Assembly: GCA_947495135.1 (NCBI GenBank)
Contig: CANLXN010000009.1
Location: forward strand, 116,165-180,164
DNA length: 64,000 bases
Source of the DNA: an uncultured Flavobacteriaceae bacterium
GTDB taxonomy: Bacteria > Bacteroidota > Bacteroidia > Flavobacteriales > Flavobacteriaceae
Reading direction: 5' to 3'
The position numbers and the translations under genes were made by a program. The notes beneath the pieces are model-generated. The model worked only from the letters and a program-made list of their open reading frames with translations. It did not search any database and was not told where the DNA came from. Position 1 is the stretch's first letter; every line of letters begins with the position of its first letter. Positions 19,426 through 42,043 of this stretch are shown piece by piece.

Positions 19426-20466
19426 ATGAAACTTTTAAAATATTTATTCTTCCTGATCCTCATTGTGATTATTGGTGGAGCAGTATACTTTGGCACAAAA
19501 GAGAGCTCATACGATCTCAGCGAATCAAAAGTAATAAATGCACCCGTTGATATGATTTTCAAGAAGGTAAACGACTATAAAACTTGGGAAAACTGGGGGC
19601 CTTGGAAAAAAGAAGATCCTACAATGGCATTCACGTATCCTGAAAACACCAGCGGTGAAGGCGGCTCCTATTCTTGGACAGGCGAAATGGACGGATCCAT
19701 GACCACCACTAAAGTTACCCAAAACAAAGAGATTCTTCAAGATTTAACGCTACAAACACCTGGAGGCGAAAGAAACCCTAAAGTGTATTGGAATTTTGAA
19801 GAAACGCAGGAAGGAACCGAAGTAACTTGGGGCATGAAGGGAGAACACACCTTCATGGATAAAGTCTATTACGGCCTAAGCGGTATGGATTTCGATAAAG
19901 ACATGAAAGAAATGCACGAATCTGGACTGGAAGGAATTGCAGCCAGCGTTGCCGAAGACATGAAAAAATACACCATCACCGTTGAAGGGGTTAAGCAATA
20001 CGGAGGAGGATATTATATGTATACTACTACCGCAAGTAAGCAAAGTGAAGTGGGCGCCAAGATGGGACCCATGATGGGGAAAGTTGCTGCTTTTATGCAA
20101 AAGAACCAAATTCAATCTTCAGGAATGCCCTTCACCATTTACAACGAATGGGATACCACGAACAACTCTACCATATTTTCAGCAGCCATCCCCGTAAATG
20201 AGCGCATCATTGTTACAGAAGGTGATGTTCTTTGTGGTTATATGCCACCGGTATCTGCAATTAAAACTACGCTCAAAGGAAATTATGAGAACCTTCCAAA
20301 AGCCTATGCAAAAGCACAGCAATACATACAAGACAACGTTATAATGGTAGACACTGCTCATAAGATGTTTGAAGTGTACACCAACGATCCTGGGGAAGTG
20401 ACTAATCCGGCAGATTGGCAAACAGATATTTACATCCCAGTACTTGTGAACATAGTTCCTAACTAA
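19426..20466 (+). CDS. SRPBCC + GyrI-like domain protein with N-terminal membrane anchor
   Basis: N-terminal TM; WENWGPW/YSW SRPBCC half; C-terminal GyrI-like (KGNYENL, FEVYTNDPG, WQTDIYIP). Confidence 0.8.
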   Translation: MKLLKYLFFLILIVIIGGAVYFGTKESSYDLSESKVINAPVDMIFKKVNDYKTWENWGPWKKEDPTMAFTYPENTSGEGGSYSWTGEMDGSMTTTKVTQNKEILQDLTLQTPGGERNPKVYWNFEETQEGTEVTWGMKGEHTFMDKVYYGLSGMDFDKDMKEMHESGLEGIAASVAEDMKKYTITVEGVKQYGGGYYMYTTTASKQSEVGAKMGPMMGKVAAFMQKNQIQSSGMPFTIYNEWDTTNNSTIFSAAIPVNERIIVTEGDVLCGYMPPVSAIKTTLKGNYENLPKAYAKAQQYIQDNVIMVDTAHKMFEVYTNDPGEVTNPADWQTDIYIPVLVNIVPN

Positions 20467-20491
20467 TCATGAAATATAATAAAGCAACTCC

Positions 20492-20863
20492 TTGAAACAA
20501 CTCCTTCTAGTTTTTTTAGGTGGCGGATTGGGAAGTTCGCTGCGTTATATACTTGGAAAATATCTCAATAGCGCAGCTAATGGAATTCCCTATGGAACCT
20601 TTGCCGCAAATATTTTAGGGAGCTTAATCATTGGAATTATTCTTGGAATGGCAGCAAAAAATGAAATGTTGTCTCAAAACACTACCCTCCTATTAGCCAC
20701 AGGTTTTTGCGGAGGGTTTACTACATTCTCCACTTTTGCCTACGAAAACCATATTTTTCTCAAAAATGGTGACTTCGGTCTCTTCGCTATTTATACCATC
20801 GCAAGTTTTATTCTTGCTTTTGCTGCTGTTTTTCTCGGAATGTGGCTGGTAAGGTTGGTCTAG
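20492..20863 (+). CDS. crcB: Fluoride efflux channel CrcB/FluC
   Basis: GGGLGSSLRY, GTFAANILGS, GFCGGFTTFSTF; TTG start. Confidence 0.92.
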   Translation: MKQLLLVFLGGGLGSSLRYILGKYLNSAANGIPYGTFAANILGSLIIGIILGMAAKNEMLSQNTTLLLATGFCGGFTTFSTFAYENHIFLKNGDFGLFAIYTIASFILAFAAVFLGMWLVRLV

Positions 20864-21468
20864 TGCTCTCCAAAATCTTTTACGCCTGCCTCGACTCGAA
20901 CCAATAAATCGTTTTCTTTTGGCGGAATAGGGCAAGAATATCTTTTATTATATGCACAATAAGGATTGTAAGCCTTGTTGAAATCTAGCACAATTACATC
21001 ACCTTTTGGAATACGTGCATCTAAAAAGCGACCTCCACCATAAGAACCATCTCCACTGCTGAGATCGGTAAAAGGCAAAAACAGATAATCTACATATTCT
21101 GGATCATCACTAGGCGGTACACTTTGAAACAAATTTAGTTTTAAAGCGGTATTGTTTATTTCAAAGTGAGCTTCTCCGTATTTTACGTATTCGGGAAGAC
21201 GATCTGTCGTTGTTGGCATTAAAAATGGTTTCTCATTAGGAGTGCGAACAAACTTTGCCTCTATTCTATAATCTAAGTTAATTGGATAAAATTCTAACGC
21301 TTCAAAATTTTCAAAATCTTTTGGCTCTAAAATAGTAGTCTCCGCATTGGCAAAATTTTCATTTTCCTCTAAACGATAGGCTTTTATATCTTCTATCATT
21401 TCAGCATTGGTTTGAGCTGTAGATATTTCAGAAACAATAAACAATAACAGAAAAGGGAGGTATTTCAT
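20860..21468 (-). CDS. DUF1684-family secreted protein
   Basis: LFLPFTD, YGGGRFLD, LDFNKAYNPYCAYN, CPIPPKEN; start moved to MKYLPF. Confidence 0.88.
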   Translation of the reverse strand: MKYLPFLLLFIVSEISTAQTNAEMIEDIKAYRLEENENFANAETTILEPKDFENFEALEFYPINLDYRIEAKFVRTPNEKPFLMPTTTDRLPEYVKYGEAHFEINNTALKLNLFQSVPPSDDPEYVDYLFLPFTDLSSGDGSYGGGRFLDARIPKGDVIVLDFNKAYNPYCAYNKRYSCPIPPKENDLLVRVEAGVKDFGEH

Positions 21469-21510
21469 CTTAAAAAGTTTATGTAAATATAATTGAATTA
21501 TAAAAATCAT

Positions 21511-21518
21511 TACATTTG
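21511..21518 (+). promoter_or_regulatory. Bacteroidetes -7 promoter element
   Basis: TACATTTG matches TAnnTTTG, 20 bp before the leader ATG. Confidence 0.65.
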
Positions 21519-21537
21519 GAATAACAAAGAAGAAAAA

Positions 21538-21609
21538 ATGAACAATCGCACCTATTTAATCCAATCGAAAACTGTAGTGTACTGCTGCGGCCGGATATGT
21601 ATGTGTTGA
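21538..21609 (+). CDS. Putative Cys-rich leader peptide MNNRTYLIQSKTVVYCCGRICMC
   Basis: 23 codons; 4 Cys in the last 8; A-rich start context; followed by a terminator. Confidence 0.7.
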   Translation: MNNRTYLIQSKTVVYCCGRICMC

Positions 21610-21636
21610 TGATAGAACTATCAAGTAATTCAATAT

Positions 21637-21675
21637 AAAAACGTCCGGTATCTCTACCGGACGTTTTATTTTTAT
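21637..21675 (+). terminator. Attenuator-type intrinsic terminator upstream of MFS gene
   Basis: AAAAACGTCCGGTA-TCTC-TACCGGACGTTTT then ATTTTTAT; lies between uORF and MFS start. Confidence 0.8.
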
Positions 21676-21696
21676 ACTACCTCACAACCCACCAAC

Positions 21697-22923
21697 ATGA
21701 AACAATTTTTTACTAACTACATAGAAAACTTTCGGGGCCTCTCCAGAGAAATCTGGCTCTTATCGCTGGTTACATTTATTAACAGAGCAGGTGCTATGGT
21801 CCTTCCGTTTCTATCCCTCTACTTGGTCAATGCAAAATGCTTTACTTTACCGCAAGTTGGATGGATTATGACGAGCTACGGAATTGGATCCTTACTTGGC
21901 ACATGGATTGGTGGAAGATTAACCGATAAAATTGGGTTTTACAAAGTGATTATTGCCAGTCTTTTTTTAGGTGGACTGGGATTTATCGCTCTCCAATTTC
22001 TGGATACTTTCTACACCATATGTATAGGAATGATGATCTTAAGTGCTCTAGCAGATGCCTACCGTCCGGCAATTTTCGTTGCCTGCGACGCCTATAGTAA
22101 ACCAGAAAACGTAACGCGGGCAATTGCACTTATTAGATTAGCCATTAATCTTGGCTTTTCTATTGGTCCTGTAATTGGAGGACTCATTATTGCTCGAATA
22201 AATTACTCTTCCCTATTCTGGATTGATGGGATTACCTGTGTTTTGGCTGCCCTCCTGCTATTCTTGGTCCTTAAGCCAAAAGCAATGAATGAGGGGCATA
22301 CAAAACAGACAGAAGCGGTAAAAGAAGGCATCTCGCCTTATAAAAATGCACTCTACCTATTGCTCGTTCTTATAATGATATTGAGCACCATCACCTTTGT
22401 TCAATATTTCTCGGTACTCCCATTGTATTACGAACAAAGGCATTTATTATCAGAAGAGCTCATCGGCCTGCTTCTCTTTCTCAATGGTGTACTCATTGTT
22501 CTTTTCGAAATGCCCATTGTGGGGTGGCTCGAACGAATCAACATCTCCAAATCCATGGCTACTTTTTGGGGAATGATCTTAATTGCACTCAGTTTTCTGG
22601 TCATGAATCTAACCAGTTGGAGCGGCGTTTTGATTATTGGCATGGTTCTCATGACTTTGGGAGAAATGGTAGGCTCGCCATTTGCAAATGCCCTAGCATT
22701 GTCAATGGCCCCCAAAGGCAGGAAAGGAACCTATATGGGTCTTTATAGTATGAGCTTTTCTATGGCGCACATTGTGGGGCATAATAGCGGGATGAATCTT
22801 GTAGATCAATTTGGATACGACTTTACATGGTATGTAATGGCGTTTGTTTTATTAGTGGTGGCCGCTATGTGTATTTGGCTGTACCGTTTGTTGAAAAAAT
22901 CGAAAGACTATGTAATCTATTAG
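21697..22923 (+). CDS. MFS transporter (12 TM)
   Basis: GRLTDKIG motif A; AINLGFSIGPVIGG; 408 aa hydrophobic. Confidence 0.9.
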   Translation: MKQFFTNYIENFRGLSREIWLLSLVTFINRAGAMVLPFLSLYLVNAKCFTLPQVGWIMTSYGIGSLLGTWIGGRLTDKIGFYKVIIASLFLGGLGFIALQFLDTFYTICIGMMILSALADAYRPAIFVACDAYSKPENVTRAIALIRLAINLGFSIGPVIGGLIIARINYSSLFWIDGITCVLAALLLFLVLKPKAMNEGHTKQTEAVKEGISPYKNALYLLLVLIMILSTITFVQYFSVLPLYYEQRHLLSEELIGLLLFLNGVLIVLFEMPIVGWLERINISKSMATFWGMILIALSFLVMNLTSWSGVLIIGMVLMTLGEMVGSPFANALALSMAPKGRKGTYMGLYSMSFSMAHIVGHNSGMNLVDQFGYDFTWYVMAFVLLVVAAMCIWLYRLLKKSKDYVIY

Positions 22924-23013
22924 TCTTTCTTACTGAAATATGAGTACATTTAATTAGTAAATAAACTTTAATAAGAGAGGCGGTCTGTTTCTCTTATTCT
23001 GAAATTTTCTATC

Positions 23014-23784
23014 ATGAAAAATGTTTGGTTAATTATTATTTTATTCGGACTGGTGGCTTGTGGAAATTCTCCTGAAAAGGAACTTCAAATCCATGACGAA
23101 CACACCCAAGAATTAGCAGCAGAGAATCTGCCAAACAAAACATTCCCGAAGCTGGATTCCACAAGATACAATGTAGGATTCCTAATAATGGATGGCGTAT
23201 ACAATACCGAATTAACAGCTCCTTACGATATTTTTCAGCATACCGTTTTCAGGGAGAACATAAAGGCCATGAATGTATTCACCGTCGCTAATACCGACGA
23301 GCCCATCCGCACCTTTGAAGGCATGAGGATTTTACCCGATTTTAATTATCTAAAAGACAAAATCCCAACAATTGATATTTTAGTAATCCCCAGTGCCGAA
23401 CATCATTTAGACACCGATCTGGAAGATGAAGAAATGTTAGACTTTGTAAAACGAACAAATAAAAGCGCCCAATTTATCACTTCTCACTGTGACGGAGCAT
23501 TTGTCTTAGCGAAAGCAGGCTTGCTTGAAGGAATCGTTTCTACCACCTTCCCCAGCGACATAGATGCCATGCGGGACATGTTTCCCACACTGGATGTTAG
23601 AAAAGACGTGCTTTTTGTGCACGATGGCAAGTATATAACCTCTGCAGGAGGCGCAAAAAGTTTTGAAGCGGCTCTTTATTTGTGTGAGTATCTCTACGGA
23701 AAAGAAATTACCCAATCCTTGGCTGGCGGATTAGTTATTGATTGGAACCTAAAGCAAGTTCCTCACCTTATCGTGCAAGATTAA
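23014..23784 (+). CDS. DJ-1/PfpI family lipoprotein
   Basis: Lipobox LVAC; ELTAPYDIF, SHCDGAFVLAKAG, ITSAGG. Confidence 0.85.
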   Translation: MKNVWLIIILFGLVACGNSPEKELQIHDEHTQELAAENLPNKTFPKLDSTRYNVGFLIMDGVYNTELTAPYDIFQHTVFRENIKAMNVFTVANTDEPIRTFEGMRILPDFNYLKDKIPTIDILVIPSAEHHLDTDLEDEEMLDFVKRTNKSAQFITSHCDGAFVLAKAGLLEGIVSTTFPSDIDAMRDMFPTLDVRKDVLFVHDGKYITSAGGAKSFEAALYLCEYLYGKEITQSLAGGLVIDWNLKQVPHLIVQD

Positions 23785-24221
23785 AGTGGTTTAATAGCAT
23801 TGCTCTCTACTACCTGTGACAATACAATCTGGGTTTTGGTTTCGCCATAACTGATGAGCTGATCTATAAAGGTCTCCAAATGTTTCTGATTTTTCAAAAC
23901 GACCTCCATTACAATATTCTCGTTCCCAGTAATACGATAACAGTTCACCACCTCATCATAAGTTTTCACTTGGGATAAGAATGGCTTCAATTTTCCCATA
24001 AATGCCCTCAAAGTAATAATTGCCTTTAGCTGGTAACCACACTCAAACGGAGAGACACTAGTACGGTATCCATAAATGACTCCCGCATCCTCCAATTTTT
24101 TAATTCGTTCGGTTACTGCTGGCGAACTAATTCCTATTCTACGACCAATTTCTGCACTGGAAAGACGAGCGTTGGTTTGAAGGGCCTCCAATATTTTTCT
24201 ATTAAGCGCGTCAATTTTCAT
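23781..24221 (-). CDS. Lrp/AsnC family transcriptional regulator
   Basis: LQTNARLSSAEIG...VTERIKKLEDAGVI HTH; CYRITG C-terminal domain; start moved to MKIDAL. Confidence 0.9.
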   Translation of the reverse strand: MKIDALNRKILEALQTNARLSSAEIGRRIGISSPAVTERIKKLEDAGVIYGYRTSVSPFECGYQLKAIITLRAFMGKLKPFLSQVKTYDEVVNCYRITGNENIVMEVVLKNQKHLETFIDQLISYGETKTQIVLSQVVESNAIKPL

Positions 24222-24352
24222 TTTTGAAACAATTTTAACGCAAAATAGCATATTATTAAACTAAAACCATCTTTTTGCTTTAAAATCCAAATGTTATTCT
24301 CGACGATTGTTGCTAAATTTGATGTAATTGCTAGAAAAATTATAATTATCAC

Positions 24353-39252: not shown

Positions 39253-40434
39253 CTAGCTATACGTGTAGACACCTATTTTTGAAGATATCGTTAACTTCTT
39301 ACCTTCTGAAGCTTCTACTCGGCCAACAACTTTAGCATCAACATTAAACGAATTCGAAATTGAAATAATGTCTGCTGCAATTTCTTCAGGTACGTATAAT
39401 TCCATTCTATGTCCCATGTTGAAAACTTGATACATCTCCTTCCAATCTGTTCCACTTTCCTCTTGAATGAGTCTGAAAAGTGGTGGCACATCGAACAAGT
39501 TATCTTTTATGATATGCAAATCGTCAATAAAATGCAGAATTTTGGTTTGGGCACCTCCACTGCAATGGACCATTCCATGGATTTCATTATTGCTATATGC
39601 CGCAAGAATTGCTTTTATAATAGGAGCATAAGTTCGTGTTGGAGATAACACTAATTTCCCAGCATTTATCGGACTTCCATCTACTTCGTCTGTAAGTTTT
39701 TTTGAACCCGAATACACCAAATCCTCCGGTACAGCCCTGTCGTAACTTTCACTGAATTTTTCAGCTAAATACTTGTGAAACACATCATGGCGAGCACTGG
39801 TTAACCCGTTACTTCCCATACCTCCGTTGTATTCAGTTTCATAAGTAGCCTGTCCAAAAGAAGCCAATCCAACAATTACATCTCCAGGCTTAATATTAGC
39901 ATTATCTACCACCTCATCCCTTTTCATTCTAGCGGTAACAGTTGAGTCTACAATGATAGTACGGACTAAATCGCCAACATCTGCTGTTTCTCCACCAGTA
40001 GAATAAATCTTTACACCAAATTTTTCCAGATCCTTTATCAGTTCTTCGGTACCATTAATTATAGCTGAAATGACTTCCCCTGGAATTAAATTTTTATTTC
40101 GACCGATAGTGGAAGAAAGCATAATATTGTCTACAGCCCCTACGCAAAGTAAGTCGTCAATATTCATGATGAGCGCATCTTGAGCAATACCTTTCCATAC
40201 AGAAAGATCTCCTGTTTCCTTCCAATACATATAAGCCAAAGAAGACTTAGTTCCAGCGCCATCGGCATGCATAATCAAGCAGTGATCTTCGCTTGCGGTA
40301 AGGTAATCTGGCACAATTTTACAAAAGGCTTTTGGAAAAAGTCCCTTGTCCACATTCTTTATGGCGTTGTGGACATCTTCTTTACCCGCTGATACACCTC
40401 TTTGCGCGTAGCGTTTGGAAATTTCTTGACTCAT
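39253..40434 (-). CDS. purM: Phosphoribosylformylglycinamidine cyclo-ligase (AIR synthase, Bacteroidetes type)
   Basis: RYAQRGVSA, HADGAGTKS, MNIDDL, GGETADVGD, SNGLTSARH, HCSGG, VFNMGHRM. Confidence 0.9.
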   Translation of the reverse strand: MSQEISKRYAQRGVSAGKEDVHNAIKNVDKGLFPKAFCKIVPDYLTASEDHCLIMHADGAGTKSSLAYMYWKETGDLSVWKGIAQDALIMNIDDLLCVGAVDNIMLSSTIGRNKNLIPGEVISAIINGTEELIKDLEKFGVKIYSTGGETADVGDLVRTIIVDSTVTARMKRDEVVDNANIKPGDVIVGLASFGQATYETEYNGGMGSNGLTSARHDVFHKYLAEKFSESYDRAVPEDLVYSGSKKLTDEVDGSPINAGKLVLSPTRTYAPIIKAILAAYSNNEIHGMVHCSGGAQTKILHFIDDLHIIKDNLFDVPPLFRLIQEESGTDWKEMYQVFNMGHRMELYVPEEIAADIISISNSFNVDAKVVGRVEASEGKKLTISSKIGVYTYS

Positions 40435-40467
40435 AATAGAAAATTGAATTACAAAAGTACATAATGC

Positions 40468-40499
40468 AAAAACGTCCCAAAAATAAGGGACGTTTTTTT
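40468..40499. terminator. Intrinsic terminator at end of curli secretion operon
   Basis: AAAAACGTCCC-loop-GGGACGTTTTT. Confidence 0.8.
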
Positions 40500-40519
40500 A
40501 TTAAGTTATTTTAACAACA

Positions 40520-42043
40520 CTATTGCCAATCTGGCATGCTTGCGTTCGTAAACACCAATTCTCTTGTAGAACTTCCGCCCAATGGTATCACATAAATATT
40601 TTCAATCGATAAGTTATCATTGGATGTGTTGGTTACGATAATTGACCCTTCGTCTGGGGAATATTTTACGTCGAGATCATTGGTACCGTTTATTTTGTCT
40701 ATCGACAACTCGATTGTTTCGCTGGTATCAAAATCAAATTCGAATATTCGGGTATCTAATTGTCTATAATTAACATTTTCGAATCCAGTGATGTCTTGCG
40801 TATACAAAACACGTTGTCCGTCAATCGAGAAATCAATTCCACCAATGGCTCCTGGTTCACCTTCCACCACAGATTTAACTATCCCACCATCTGTTGGATC
40901 AATAATTATGATCTTCGCATTATACCCTATTGCATTATTCAGTTTTAAAACAACAAAGTCACTAAATTCATTGGTTGCAACTTCTGTTATAAAATCTTGA
41001 GGATCTGCTTCCCAAACCAATGTTGTTCCCGATCCATCTGCATTAATAGAATACAATCTATTGAAATTAGGGTAGTATAACTTTTCTCCGTTCGGAAACC
41101 AATCAAATTCTATCTCATCGTTTCGGAATCCCGCAACTGGAACAGTCGAAGTAAGTTGATCGACGCCAGACCCATCAGAATTCATTGAAAATAAATGTAC
41201 TGCAGTTCCAACAGTCCTTAAAAATGCAATTTTCTCGTTGGTTCTATTCTTTCTTGGCTTAAAACTATTGGTCTCTGCATCTGTCAATGCAAATTCATCC
41301 TCATTAGGATCATTTTCTTCTCCGTCTTCATTGGTGTCGTTACCAGAATAAATTACGAAATTCCCGTTATCCTCCTCTCGAGTGTATAAAAAACGATTTA
41401 GATTTTCAGTAGAAGTGGTGAAACTACTAATTGAGCTTTGTACTACCGGTGCTATGTCGTCATCTGCTTTTACTTGCCAGAAATAGGTTGTTGCTAAGGT
41501 TAAATTGGCAACTGTATAGGTAGTGTCCTGTAAATTTTCGAACAACTGGATTTCGTTGGTTGACCCATTACGAACTTCCAAGGTATAGGTTAACTCATCA
41601 TCGTTGTCGTCACTTCCTATCCATAAGAAATCAACACTTAGTGCTACATCGGTACTATTATCCAATGGAAAAATAAGAATTGGCTCATTTGGTGGCACAT
41701 TGTCCCCCGTTCGTTCTTCCAATTCAAACACCAAATTAGTCGTTCCGCCGGTTATAATGGTTGCTGCTTCGAAAGAAACAATAAAATCATCTAATTCTGC
41801 CTGTACAGAATAATCGCCAGTTGAAATATCTTCAATTATAAAAGCTCCAAGATCGTCTGTAAAAACAGTATTAGAAGTTGGATTTGTTGTTATTTTCACA
41901 TTAGCCAGAGGAAGGTTTCCGTCTGCGGCCACCACAAATCCAGTTAGTGTCCCAAAACCGTTTTGTTCAAAGGTATCTTCAGAACAGCCTCCAAACATAA
42001 GTAGAAGTGTGCAGCTTGTTAATATATATAGTATTCTTTTCAT
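40520..42043 (-). CDS. Curli-operon lipoprotein: carboxypeptidase-regulatory-like + FN3-like + TolB/PD40 beta-propeller
   Basis: Lipobox FGGC; GTLTGFV...LANVKITT...G.F; YFWQVKADD; propeller motifs IAFLR, FDWFPNGEKLYY, FSIDGQRVLY, YSPDEGSII; 2 bp after csgG stop. Confidence 0.8.
   Translation of the reverse strand: MKRILYILTSCTLLLMFGGCSEDTFEQNGFGTLTGFVVAADGNLPLANVKITTNPTSNTVFTDDLGAFIIEDISTGDYSVQAELDDFIVSFEAATIITGGTTNLVFELEERTGDNVPPNEPILIFPLDNSTDVALSVDFLWIGSDDNDDELTYTLEVRNGSTNEIQLFENLQDTTYTVANLTLATTYFWQVKADDDIAPVVQSSISSFTTSTENLNRFLYTREEDNGNFVIYSGNDTNEDGEENDPNEDEFALTDAETNSFKPRKNRTNEKIAFLRTVGTAVHLFSMNSDGSGVDQLTSTVPVAGFRNDEIEFDWFPNGEKLYYPNFNRLYSINADGSGTTLVWEADPQDFITEVATNEFSDFVVLKLNNAIGYNAKIIIIDPTDGGIVKSVVEGEPGAIGGIDFSIDGQRVLYTQDITGFENVNYRQLDTRIFEFDFDTSETIELSIDKINGTNDLDVKYSPDEGSIIVTNTSNDNLSIENIYVIPLGGSSTRELVFTNASMPDWQ

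Follow-up and report, generated by a model that had tools for sequence, protein, structure and literature searches.

A 64,000-nucleotide stretch of DNA from an uncultured Flavobacteriaceae bacterium (GenBank assembly GCA_947495135.1, contig CANLXN010000009.1, positions 116,165 to 180,164; this whole stretch is called the window) was analyzed for a leader element that precedes the gene for an MFS transporter and has the layout of a transcription attenuator. Coordinates are positions in the 64-kb window, and both the leader and the MFS gene lie on the + strand. The leader opens with TACATTTG (21511-21518), a -7 promoter box of the Bacteroidetes type, and its consensus, TAnnTTTG, is taken here to denote a promoter on the basis of established Bacteroidetes promoter knowledge. 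Transcription would start a few nt downstream of TACATTTG and leave an A-rich 5' untranslated region of ~12-15 nt. An upstream open reading frame (uORF) of 23 codons (MNNRTYLIQSKTVVYCCGRICMC, 21538-21609) begins with the ATG at 21538, 19 nt after the box, and ends with the TGA stop codon at 21607-21609. The intrinsic terminator that follows (21638-21677) consists of the stem arms AAAACGTCCGGTA (21638-21650) and TACCGGACGTTTT (21655-21667), separated by a TCTC loop and followed by ATTTTTATAC. The terminator scan returned the hairpin at 21638-21667 with 13 pairs, 6 of them G-C, and the tail ATTTTTAT. The upstream neighbor, a DUF1684 gene (20860-21477, - strand), is transcribed divergently from the leader, so the hairpin is not the 3' terminator of an adjacent gene. 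The coding sequence of the 408-aa MFS transporter (21697-22923) comes next. The original prediction, made from the window by itself, had listed the promoter, the 23-aa uORF, the 13-bp hairpin with its T-tract and the MFS start, and all of these are present where it placed them. Its remark that the track of open reading frames misses the element is consistent with the gene calls of two isolate genomes, in which the uORF is not listed as a gene.

The leader RNA is predicted to adopt two alternative folds that are built from four segments. Segment 1 (21545-21562, uORF codons 3-9) is the 5' arm of an intra-uORF hairpin, P0, in the full-length minimum-energy fold and would act as the anti-antiterminator. 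Segment 2 (21591-21610, the last ~6 codons plus the stop codon) is the antiterminator strand, which is made up of CCGGAU (21591-21596) followed by UGUGUUGA (21602-21609) and includes Cys codons 21 and 23; it can pair with segment 1 in the OFF state or with segment 3 in the ON state. Segment 3 (21630-21650) is the 21-nt stretch formed by UCAAUAUA (21630-21637) and the terminator 5' arm (21638-21650), and segment 4 is the terminator 3' arm. The OFF state corresponds to the full-length minimum-energy fold of the window leader, in which P0 (21545-21562 with 21593-21610) and the terminator are both formed. The inner hairpin of the 1:2 pairing, P1 (21572-21590), arises in the same fold from CUGUAGU and GCUGCGG (21572-21578 with 21584-21590), and Cys codons 16 and 17 belong to its 3' arm. 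The ON state was obtained by folding a transcript cut at the terminator loop. In this fold (-23.9 kcal/mol) CCGGAU at 21591-21596 pairs with GUCCGG at 21643-21648, and 21602-21609 pairs with 21630-21637. Pairing of a uORF segment (CCGGATATGT, 21591-21600) with the terminator 5' arm (ACGTCCGG, 21641-21648) had been proposed from the sequence, and the folds and alignments identify it as a conserved antiterminator. The mutually exclusive switch of that proposal holds as far as the antiterminator is concerned; what it overlooked is the upstream partner strand, segment 1, which completes the classical 1:2 / 2:3 / 3:4 arrangement.

Conservation of the element was assessed with protein scans for the MFS transporter, which recovered 4 loci in genomes and 80 in metagenomes at 51-77% protein identity. 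Duplicate removal left 59 distinct leaders for analysis, and leader counts given below refer to this set; the distinct orthologous leaders number ~60 in all. A strong hairpin and T-tract lie just upstream of the MFS start at nearly all loci scanned, and the promoter-uORF-terminator-MFS layout recurs in ~60 distinct Flavobacteriaceae loci. Most loci missed by the first filter carry the element too, with an imperfect stem, a longer spacer to the MFS gene, an N in the sequence, or a TTG or GTG start. Isolates with the element are Maribacter sp. HTCC2170 and Rasiella rasia, and the named orthologs include Aureisphaera, Rasiella, Altibacter, Aequorivita, Ulvibacter, Maribacter, Sediminicola, Arenibacter, Flavivirga, Lacinutrix, Winogradskyella and others. 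The TAnnTTTG box was found in 58 of the 59 leaders (45 exact, 13 with one mismatch) at a distance from the uORF ATG that is mostly 16-24 nt and peaks at 19-20 nt, and the A content of the 12 nt preceding this ATG is 64%. Nearly every invariant column of the leader falls in the terminator or the ATG. When a covariance model was built on clade A sequences only, it detected the clade B leaders with E-values of 1e-9 to 1e-6, and every convincing covariance-model match on the leader strand lies directly upstream of the MFS gene. The cross-clade matches and the exclusive position before this gene indicate that the leaders are homologous and specific to it.

The uORF is a constant part of the element. 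An ATG-initiated uORF of 22-27 codons is present in 59/59 leaders versus 2.8 expected from mononucleotide shuffles, and its stop codon lies 21-31 nt from the hairpin, with a single exception at 13 nt. The 59 leaders have no in-frame stops inside the uORF span, compared with 86 and 99 in the other two frames. The start codon is TTG in two orthologous loci (L076, ~1357; L027, ~1333) and GTG in a third (L038, ~60), at the homologous position and with the frame otherwise intact. The changes at these three loci go to alternative start codons, not to random triplets. A frame that is strictly kept, a conserved length and the exchange of one start codon for another indicate that translation of the uORF is under selection. 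The peptide behaves differently. Among close relatives, substitutions in the uORF are distributed over the three codon positions as 115:111:141, with 192 non-synonymous versus 71 synonymous codon changes; the first 120 codons of the MFS gene in the same pairs give 371:169:1270, with 378 non-synonymous versus 1108 synonymous. By these counts the uORF peptide is evolving almost neutrally, with no purifying selection. Together, the absence of in-frame stops and the even substitution across codon positions point to a leader peptide that matters for being translated and not for its sequence. The leader peptides are enriched in Cys (5.8%), Tyr, Thr, Ile and Arg, and Asp, Glu, Gly, Ala and Pro are near absent, a composition that fits A/U-rich RNA with U/G-rich pairing strands.

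RNAalifold applied to all clades together returned the terminator only, and the alternative structures came from per-clade RNA alignments of 31 clade B sequences (A2) and 19 clade A sequences (A3). The terminator stem is 97% paired and shows compensatory changes in both clades. In clade B, 84% of cells are paired in the OFF fold (~40% with the partners slid) and 84% in the ON fold (30-44% with the partners slid). The corresponding values in clade A are 93% for OFF (28-47% with the partners slid) and 82% for ON (29-46%). Compensatory changes occur in 20 of the 31 pairs of the clade B OFF fold, a result that was matched by 0 of 500 shuffles, and the clade B equivalent of P1 changes on both sides in 6/6 pairs. 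The helix equivalent to the one formed by segment 1 is 86% paired in clade A, with compensatory changes in 5/7 pairs, and 77% paired in clade B. Three terminator stem types, ACGUCCGG, AGUCCAAC and AGCCCUGAU, are found across the family, and each is matched by a strand near the uORF 3' end. The cross-clade covariance-model alignment (A4) is too gappy in the clade B antiterminator for column counts, and duplex energies were therefore used for this comparison. The antiterminator/terminator duplex has an energy of -10.4 kcal/mol when a leader is paired with its own terminator, -7.7 when terminators are swapped and -6.2 with shuffled strands; for clade A the value is -11.9 kcal/mol with the own terminator versus ~-6 when the terminator is of a different type. 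When leaders were folded one by one, the antiterminator formed in 44/59 truncated leaders versus 25% of controls, and the 1:2 hairpin averages ~20 pairs versus ~10 in controls. Covariation and RNA folding had been suggested as a check on the element, and both folds are supported by the pairing counts and by folding across the clades.

The genes behind the terminator were examined for the function under control. The MFS protein matches PF07690 (E 2.7e-59) and contains the drug:H+ antiporter motifs A (GRLTDKIG) and C (GFSIGPVIGG), whose residues do not vary in alignment A1. In NCBIfam and PDB sequence comparisons its best matches, though weak, are to drug or amine H+ antiporters (multidrug resistance superfamily, NorA, VMAT), and the matches to multidrug, Tet, Cml and NorA models are likewise weak and sub-threshold. 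The protein is predicted to be an efflux pump of the H+-antiporter type. A gene for a DJ-1/PfpI protein with a lipoprotein-like signal sequence (23014-23784, + strand; PF01965 match) is the probable second gene of the operon. It lies directly downstream of the MFS gene in 32 loci, as counted within the short flanks examined. The gap between the two genes is 90 nt in the window and 12 nt in Rasiella rasia, and in Maribacter sp. HTCC2170 the two overlap by a single base (L085 position 5203). The MFS_1 and DJ-1/PfpI genes form a conserved pairing that is not an amino-acid pathway. The gap between the terminator and the MFS ATG is ~20-29 nt with a median of ~22 nt, and a TAnnTTTG box occurs there in only 4/59 leaders, where it is formed by the T-tract; the other 55/59 have none. 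This short gap without a promoter box indicates that the MFS gene is transcribed only by read-through of the terminator. The spacer itself (21678-21696) is C/A-rich, and a ACCAACCAA-like motif (CTACCTCACAACCCACCAAC in the window) recurs in most loci. This spacer may provide an unstructured translation-initiation context for the MFS gene.

The leader combines a selected uORF, a terminator with no separate promoter behind it and mutually exclusive pairings that overlap the reading frame, which are the features of leader-peptide attenuators as a general class. The attenuator architecture itself is very probable on this evidence, and it is probable that a ribosome-dependent leader-peptide transcription attenuator controls the operon of the efflux-type MFS pump and the DJ-1/PfpI protein. 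In the proposed mechanism, a leader RNA with no ribosome would form 1:2 and then 3:4, and transcription would terminate. A ribosome that reaches the stop codon would occupy segment 2, so that 3:4 forms and the outcome is again termination. A ribosome stalled or lagging at about codons 2-14 would melt 1:2 and leave segment 2 free; 2:3 would then form, and the pump operon would be transcribed. The standard ribosome footprint reaches roughly 12-15 nt upstream of the P site, and the end of the antiterminator strand lies 5-13 nt upstream of the stop codon in most leaders, so a terminating ribosome is expected to cover this strand. The drifting peptide and the absence of sensor-codon runs make a general slowing or arrest of translation the most likely input, such as ribosome-targeting natural products might cause, and an input of this kind would suit an MDR-type exporter. 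By analogy with bmrCD and toiL, the operon may serve efflux and detoxification in response to translation stress or antibiotics, a reading that is put forward tentatively. A more specific form, in which the leader would be a sequence-independent 'translation speedometer' and slowing on the first ~14 codons, brought about by ribosome-targeting natural products or by translation stress of another kind, would switch on the pump and a periplasmic DJ-1/PfpI enzyme, is possible and falls short of probable. The macrolide-type +x+ motif, R/K-x-R/K, is found within codons 2-14 in only 7/59 leaders; most examples sit at codons 15-18, and a stall there would hide the antiterminator.

Several points weigh against this attenuator mechanism. 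We infer termination, read-through and translation of the uORF from sequence; ribosome positions were derived from standard footprint sizes, and Bacteroidota are assumed to couple transcription to translation and to show RNA polymerase pausing. A search of sequencing runs recovered the window locus from DNA metagenomes and from no RNA run, and four runs with the label of the Tara locus L007 gave no reads there. The element appears to be absent at two of the loci (L004 and L014) and is consequently not obligatory. Three others (L031-L033) retain the TAnnTTTG box and the hairpin with its T-tract in a shortened leader that lacks an ATG-initiated uORF. These are related metagenome loci in which the MFS protein is 64% identical and the MFS gene starts at 1501, and they may represent a natural loss of the leader reading frame. 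Within-clade covariation of the antiterminator is modest. In the clade A ON fold only 2/16 pairs show double-sided changes, no more than the shuffle control gives, and the case for clade A comes mainly from the percentage of paired cells and from the match across terminator types. The name given to the orthologs by NCBI, 'MDR family MFS transporter', is an annotation and not a test of drug export. Finally, Thr is the residue that recurs most regularly, with at least 2 in the stall zone of 46/59 leaders, which leaves room for a specific amino-acid signal.

Such a signal would make the leader an attenuator in which Thr, Ile, Tyr or Asn codons in positions 3-14 sense starvation. The residues of the stall-competent zone are 16.6% Thr, 10.3% Ile and 10% Asn, and TT and NN tandems occur. 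However, there are no codon runs comparable to those of the thr, his and leu leaders, and the enriched residues correspond to the A-rich ANN codons of an A/C-rich, weakly structured stretch. The uORF residues drift freely among close relatives, and the regulated genes encode an antiporter-type MFS protein and a DJ-1/PfpI protein, neither of them biosynthetic and with no obvious importer. The lack of sensor codons and of pathway genes argues against an amino-acid-specific attenuator, and starvation for one of these residues is an unlikely input.

Another conceivable reading is a nascent-peptide sensor comparable to TnaC or SpeFL, in which a specific peptide in the ribosome tunnel binds a small molecule, perhaps the substrate of the pump, and arrests the ribosome. 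It would account for a leader of ~24 residues, a length that resembles TnaC, and for the N-terminal pattern M-(R/K)-N-x-(V/T)-T-I-Y that recurs within clades. The recurring N-terminal residues coincide with the P0 strands, however, and change in step with the RNA pairing. The 192 non-synonymous versus 71 synonymous changes and their even spread over the codon positions show no purifying selection on a peptide that would have to bind a ligand, and a ribosome arrested on or close to the stop codon would mask the antiterminator, favoring termination. Sensing by the nascent peptide is very improbable for these reasons.

The promoter, reading frame and terminator could also be regarded as a complete small transcription unit, that is, an independent gene, ending in a terminator of its own, for a protein of 23 aa or a small RNA, followed by an MFS gene with a promoter of its own. 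A pattern of this kind has been recorded in a Flavobacterium psychrophilum transcriptome study for an MFS permease gene, THC0290_0574, that may or may not be an ortholog (PMC9723704). According to that study, the gene has a SigA-type start 138 nt upstream with the box TATCTTTG, and its 133-nt 5' segment, which is scored separately, exceeds the coding sequence by up to ~2-3 log2 units in some conditions (PMC9723704). An abundant terminated leader is expected from an attenuator as well, and the THC0290_0574 pattern is what an attenuated leader would give; it is treated as a lead and not as evidence. An independent small gene is at odds with the ~22-nt gap between the terminator and the MFS ATG, which has no promoter box in 55/59 loci. 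It also leaves a conserved pairing that destroys the terminator without a purpose, its supposed peptide is not conserved, and the element is found only before this MFS gene. A stand-alone gene is accordingly given very little credence.

The leader is highly structured and has two conserved alternative folds, and an AsnC/Lrp-type regulator gene is nearby in 47 loci. These observations would suit a riboswitch or a protein-binding leader in which a ligand or an RNA-binding protein selects the fold and translation is secondary. The strict frame, the conserved length and the start-for-start substitutions of the uORF show instead that translation is selected, and no unpaired nucleotide is invariant in the way that a ligand pocket would require. 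A search of the leader region against Rfam 15 with permissive E-values gave no family match at threshold; the matches were sub-threshold and driven by the terminator, the best being STnc430 at 27.9 bits versus a threshold of 47. Control by a ligand or a bound protein is highly unlikely on these grounds.

The original prediction read the leader as a cysteine sensor, in which a stall caused by scarce Cys-tRNA, or an inverse logic with read-through when Cys-tRNA is plentiful, sets read-through into a cysteine or thiol exporter. The window leader has 4 Cys among its last 8 residues, the 5.8% Cys content of the leader family is well above typical proteome levels, and proteins of the DJ-1/PfpI family use a reactive Cys. 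The cysteine reading is nevertheless barely credible once the orthologs are compared. Conserved Cys codons in orthologous leaders had been named as the check, and these codons are not conserved and vary in position. No Cys is present in 9/59 leaders and a single one in 30/59, and the window's four are the maximum and unique. No alignment position is consistently Cys, the best being position -3 with 17/59 leaders, and two orthologous leaders (L001 and L002, MFS proteins 69% and 75% identical) have no Cys. Most of the Cys codons (49 of 79, including all four in the window) come after codon 14, inside the pairing strands. One helix position carries either UAU (Tyr) or UGU (Cys), giving an A-U or a G-U pair, and a swap that keeps the pairing suggests that the constraint acts on the RNA.

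Ribosome position gives the same answer. The window Cys codons start at 21583, 21586, 21598 and 21604, in the P1 3' arm and segment 2. For CCGGAU to stay exposed, the A site of a stalled ribosome can be no further along than about codon 14 (nt 21577), which is 5' of all of them. The original prediction was right to expect the antiterminator strand to be hidden by a ribosome at the Cys codons. A Cys stall would then cover the antiterminator just as a terminating ribosome does, which disposes of both the direct and the inverted Cys logic: under the inverted scheme proposed for a thiol exporter, the stall would have the same outcome as normal termination. The suggestion that thiol-reactive metals or oxidants are sensed fares no better, with Cys unconserved and missing from 9/59 leaders and a peptide that drifts (192 versus 71 changes). 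The Cys codons of the window are incidental, by-products of U/G-rich pairing strands. The striking run of Cys codons was exposed as a side effect only through ortholog comparison, which is a caution for readings of a sequence by itself. An explanation of the Asn and Tyr codons by queuosine or another tRNA modification was dropped as unsupported beyond codon composition.

The surroundings of the element were also compared. The gene order SRPBCC/GyrI-like, CrcB, DUF1684 (divergent), leader-MFS, DJ-1/PfpI and AsnC/Lrp-type (convergent) is conserved in the window (19426-24251) and at two orthologous loci (L085 and L086), and DUF1684 is the divergent neighbor at 66/85 loci. None of the DJ-1/PfpI, DUF1684 and AsnC-type neighbors received a specific name from NCBIfam. 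The crcB gene (20492-20863) starts 25 nt after the stop codon of the preceding gene and is probably co-transcribed with it. Rfam 15 gave no match at the gathering threshold on either strand anywhere in the 64-kb window, and the CrcB fluoride-channel gene is therefore without a recognizable fluoride riboswitch. The covariance model had a second match in the window at 40461-40636 (- strand; 31.5 bits, E 0.003), which was rejected as a second leader and is an ordinary 3' terminator. Its hairpin (~40474-40501, - strand; AAAAAAACGTCCC-TTATTTTT-GGGACGTTTTT) follows a gene for a 507-aa protein (40520-42043, - strand), and a promoter-like TACTTTTG box lies between the hairpin and the next gene (39253-40434). 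The stem at ~40474-40501 is nearly identical in sequence to the leader terminator stem.

Leader-peptide attenuation is textbook biology. Most cases inferred to date in Bacteroidota concern amino-acid operons, an example being the F. psychrophilum study cited above (PMC9723704), and a literature search returned no description of this leader element or of an efflux-operon attenuator in Bacteroidota. The leader described here offers a clean and widely conserved case of an attenuator in abundant marine Flavobacteriaceae, culturable strains included. If translation stress is indeed the signal, the element would link exposure to antibiotics or natural products to pump expression in bacteria that are without Shine-Dalgarno-based translational attenuation. 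If the leader does work as a translation speedometer, no attenuator family responsive to antibiotics or translation stress would have been described in Bacteroidota before it. The family would occur widely in marine Flavobacteriaceae, with a peptide molded almost wholly by the needs of RNA folding.

The closest architectural parallels are the amino-acid leaders trpL, hisL, leuL, thrL, ilvL and pheL. Like these, the element has a short translated reading frame, exclusive 1:2/2:3/3:4 pairings, a stop codon in segment 2 and an intrinsic terminator directly before the first structural gene, with read-through expected only from a stall on segment 1. It differs from the trp type in that the leader has no tandem sensor codons and encodes a drifting peptide, and in that an efflux-type MFS gene and a DJ-1/PfpI gene take the place of biosynthetic genes. 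The host is also different, since a member of the Bacteroidota has no Shine-Dalgarno-led initiation and uses a TAnnTTTG promoter. Cysteine-responsive leaders are represented by the Cys-codon leader peptides of actinobacterial cys genes and by Cys T-boxes. The likeness to these is confined to the several Cys codons in the leader of this one window; in the present family the Cys codons are unconserved and lie outside the stall-competent zone, and the downstream genes do not belong to cysteine metabolism.

Leaders of drug exporters and resistance genes offer further parallels. The cmlA, fexA, cat, tet(L) and ermC genes have translation-attenuation leaders of 8-20 codons that unmask a ribosome-binding site. 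The common ground is a leader peptide before an MFS exporter, a predicted one in the present case, and a stall that would remodel the leader RNA. Those systems exert translational control, whereas the switch here is a transcription terminator, a solution that suits Bacteroidota because these bacteria do not rely on Shine-Dalgarno pairing. The uORF toiL of the Escherichia coli topAI-yjhQ operon is reportedly a general sensor of ribosome-targeting antibiotics that responds to many inhibitor classes and is reported to act through Rho-dependent termination. It resembles the present uORF as a reading frame that would report many kinds of translation stress by way of ribosome stalling, and it differs in its apparent dependence on Rho, where the element described here has an intrinsic terminator and an RNA antiterminator; the sequences are unrelated. 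The leaders of vmlR, lmo0919, msr(D) and mef/mel are antibiotic-responsive, ribosome-mediated transcription attenuators. The bmrB-bmrCD system of Bacillus subtilis subjects a multidrug transporter to ribosome-mediated attenuation (PMC4191407). The bmrCD, vmlR, lmo0919, msr(D) and mef/mel leaders resemble the present one in logic and in the kind of gene controlled: a reading frame and a terminator/antiterminator are placed before an exporter or resistance gene, which here is a predicted exporter, the input is, or here would be, a stalled ribosome, and the amino-acid requirement is loose. They belong to Firmicutes and have been shown by experiment, and several have very short leaders or motifs such as R/K-x-R/K; the Flavobacteriaceae leader is described from sequence comparison, and a drug-specific arrest motif of the known kind occurs in its stall zone in just 7/59 cases. 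The element is best placed within a known kind of regulator, in which it practically forms a new family.

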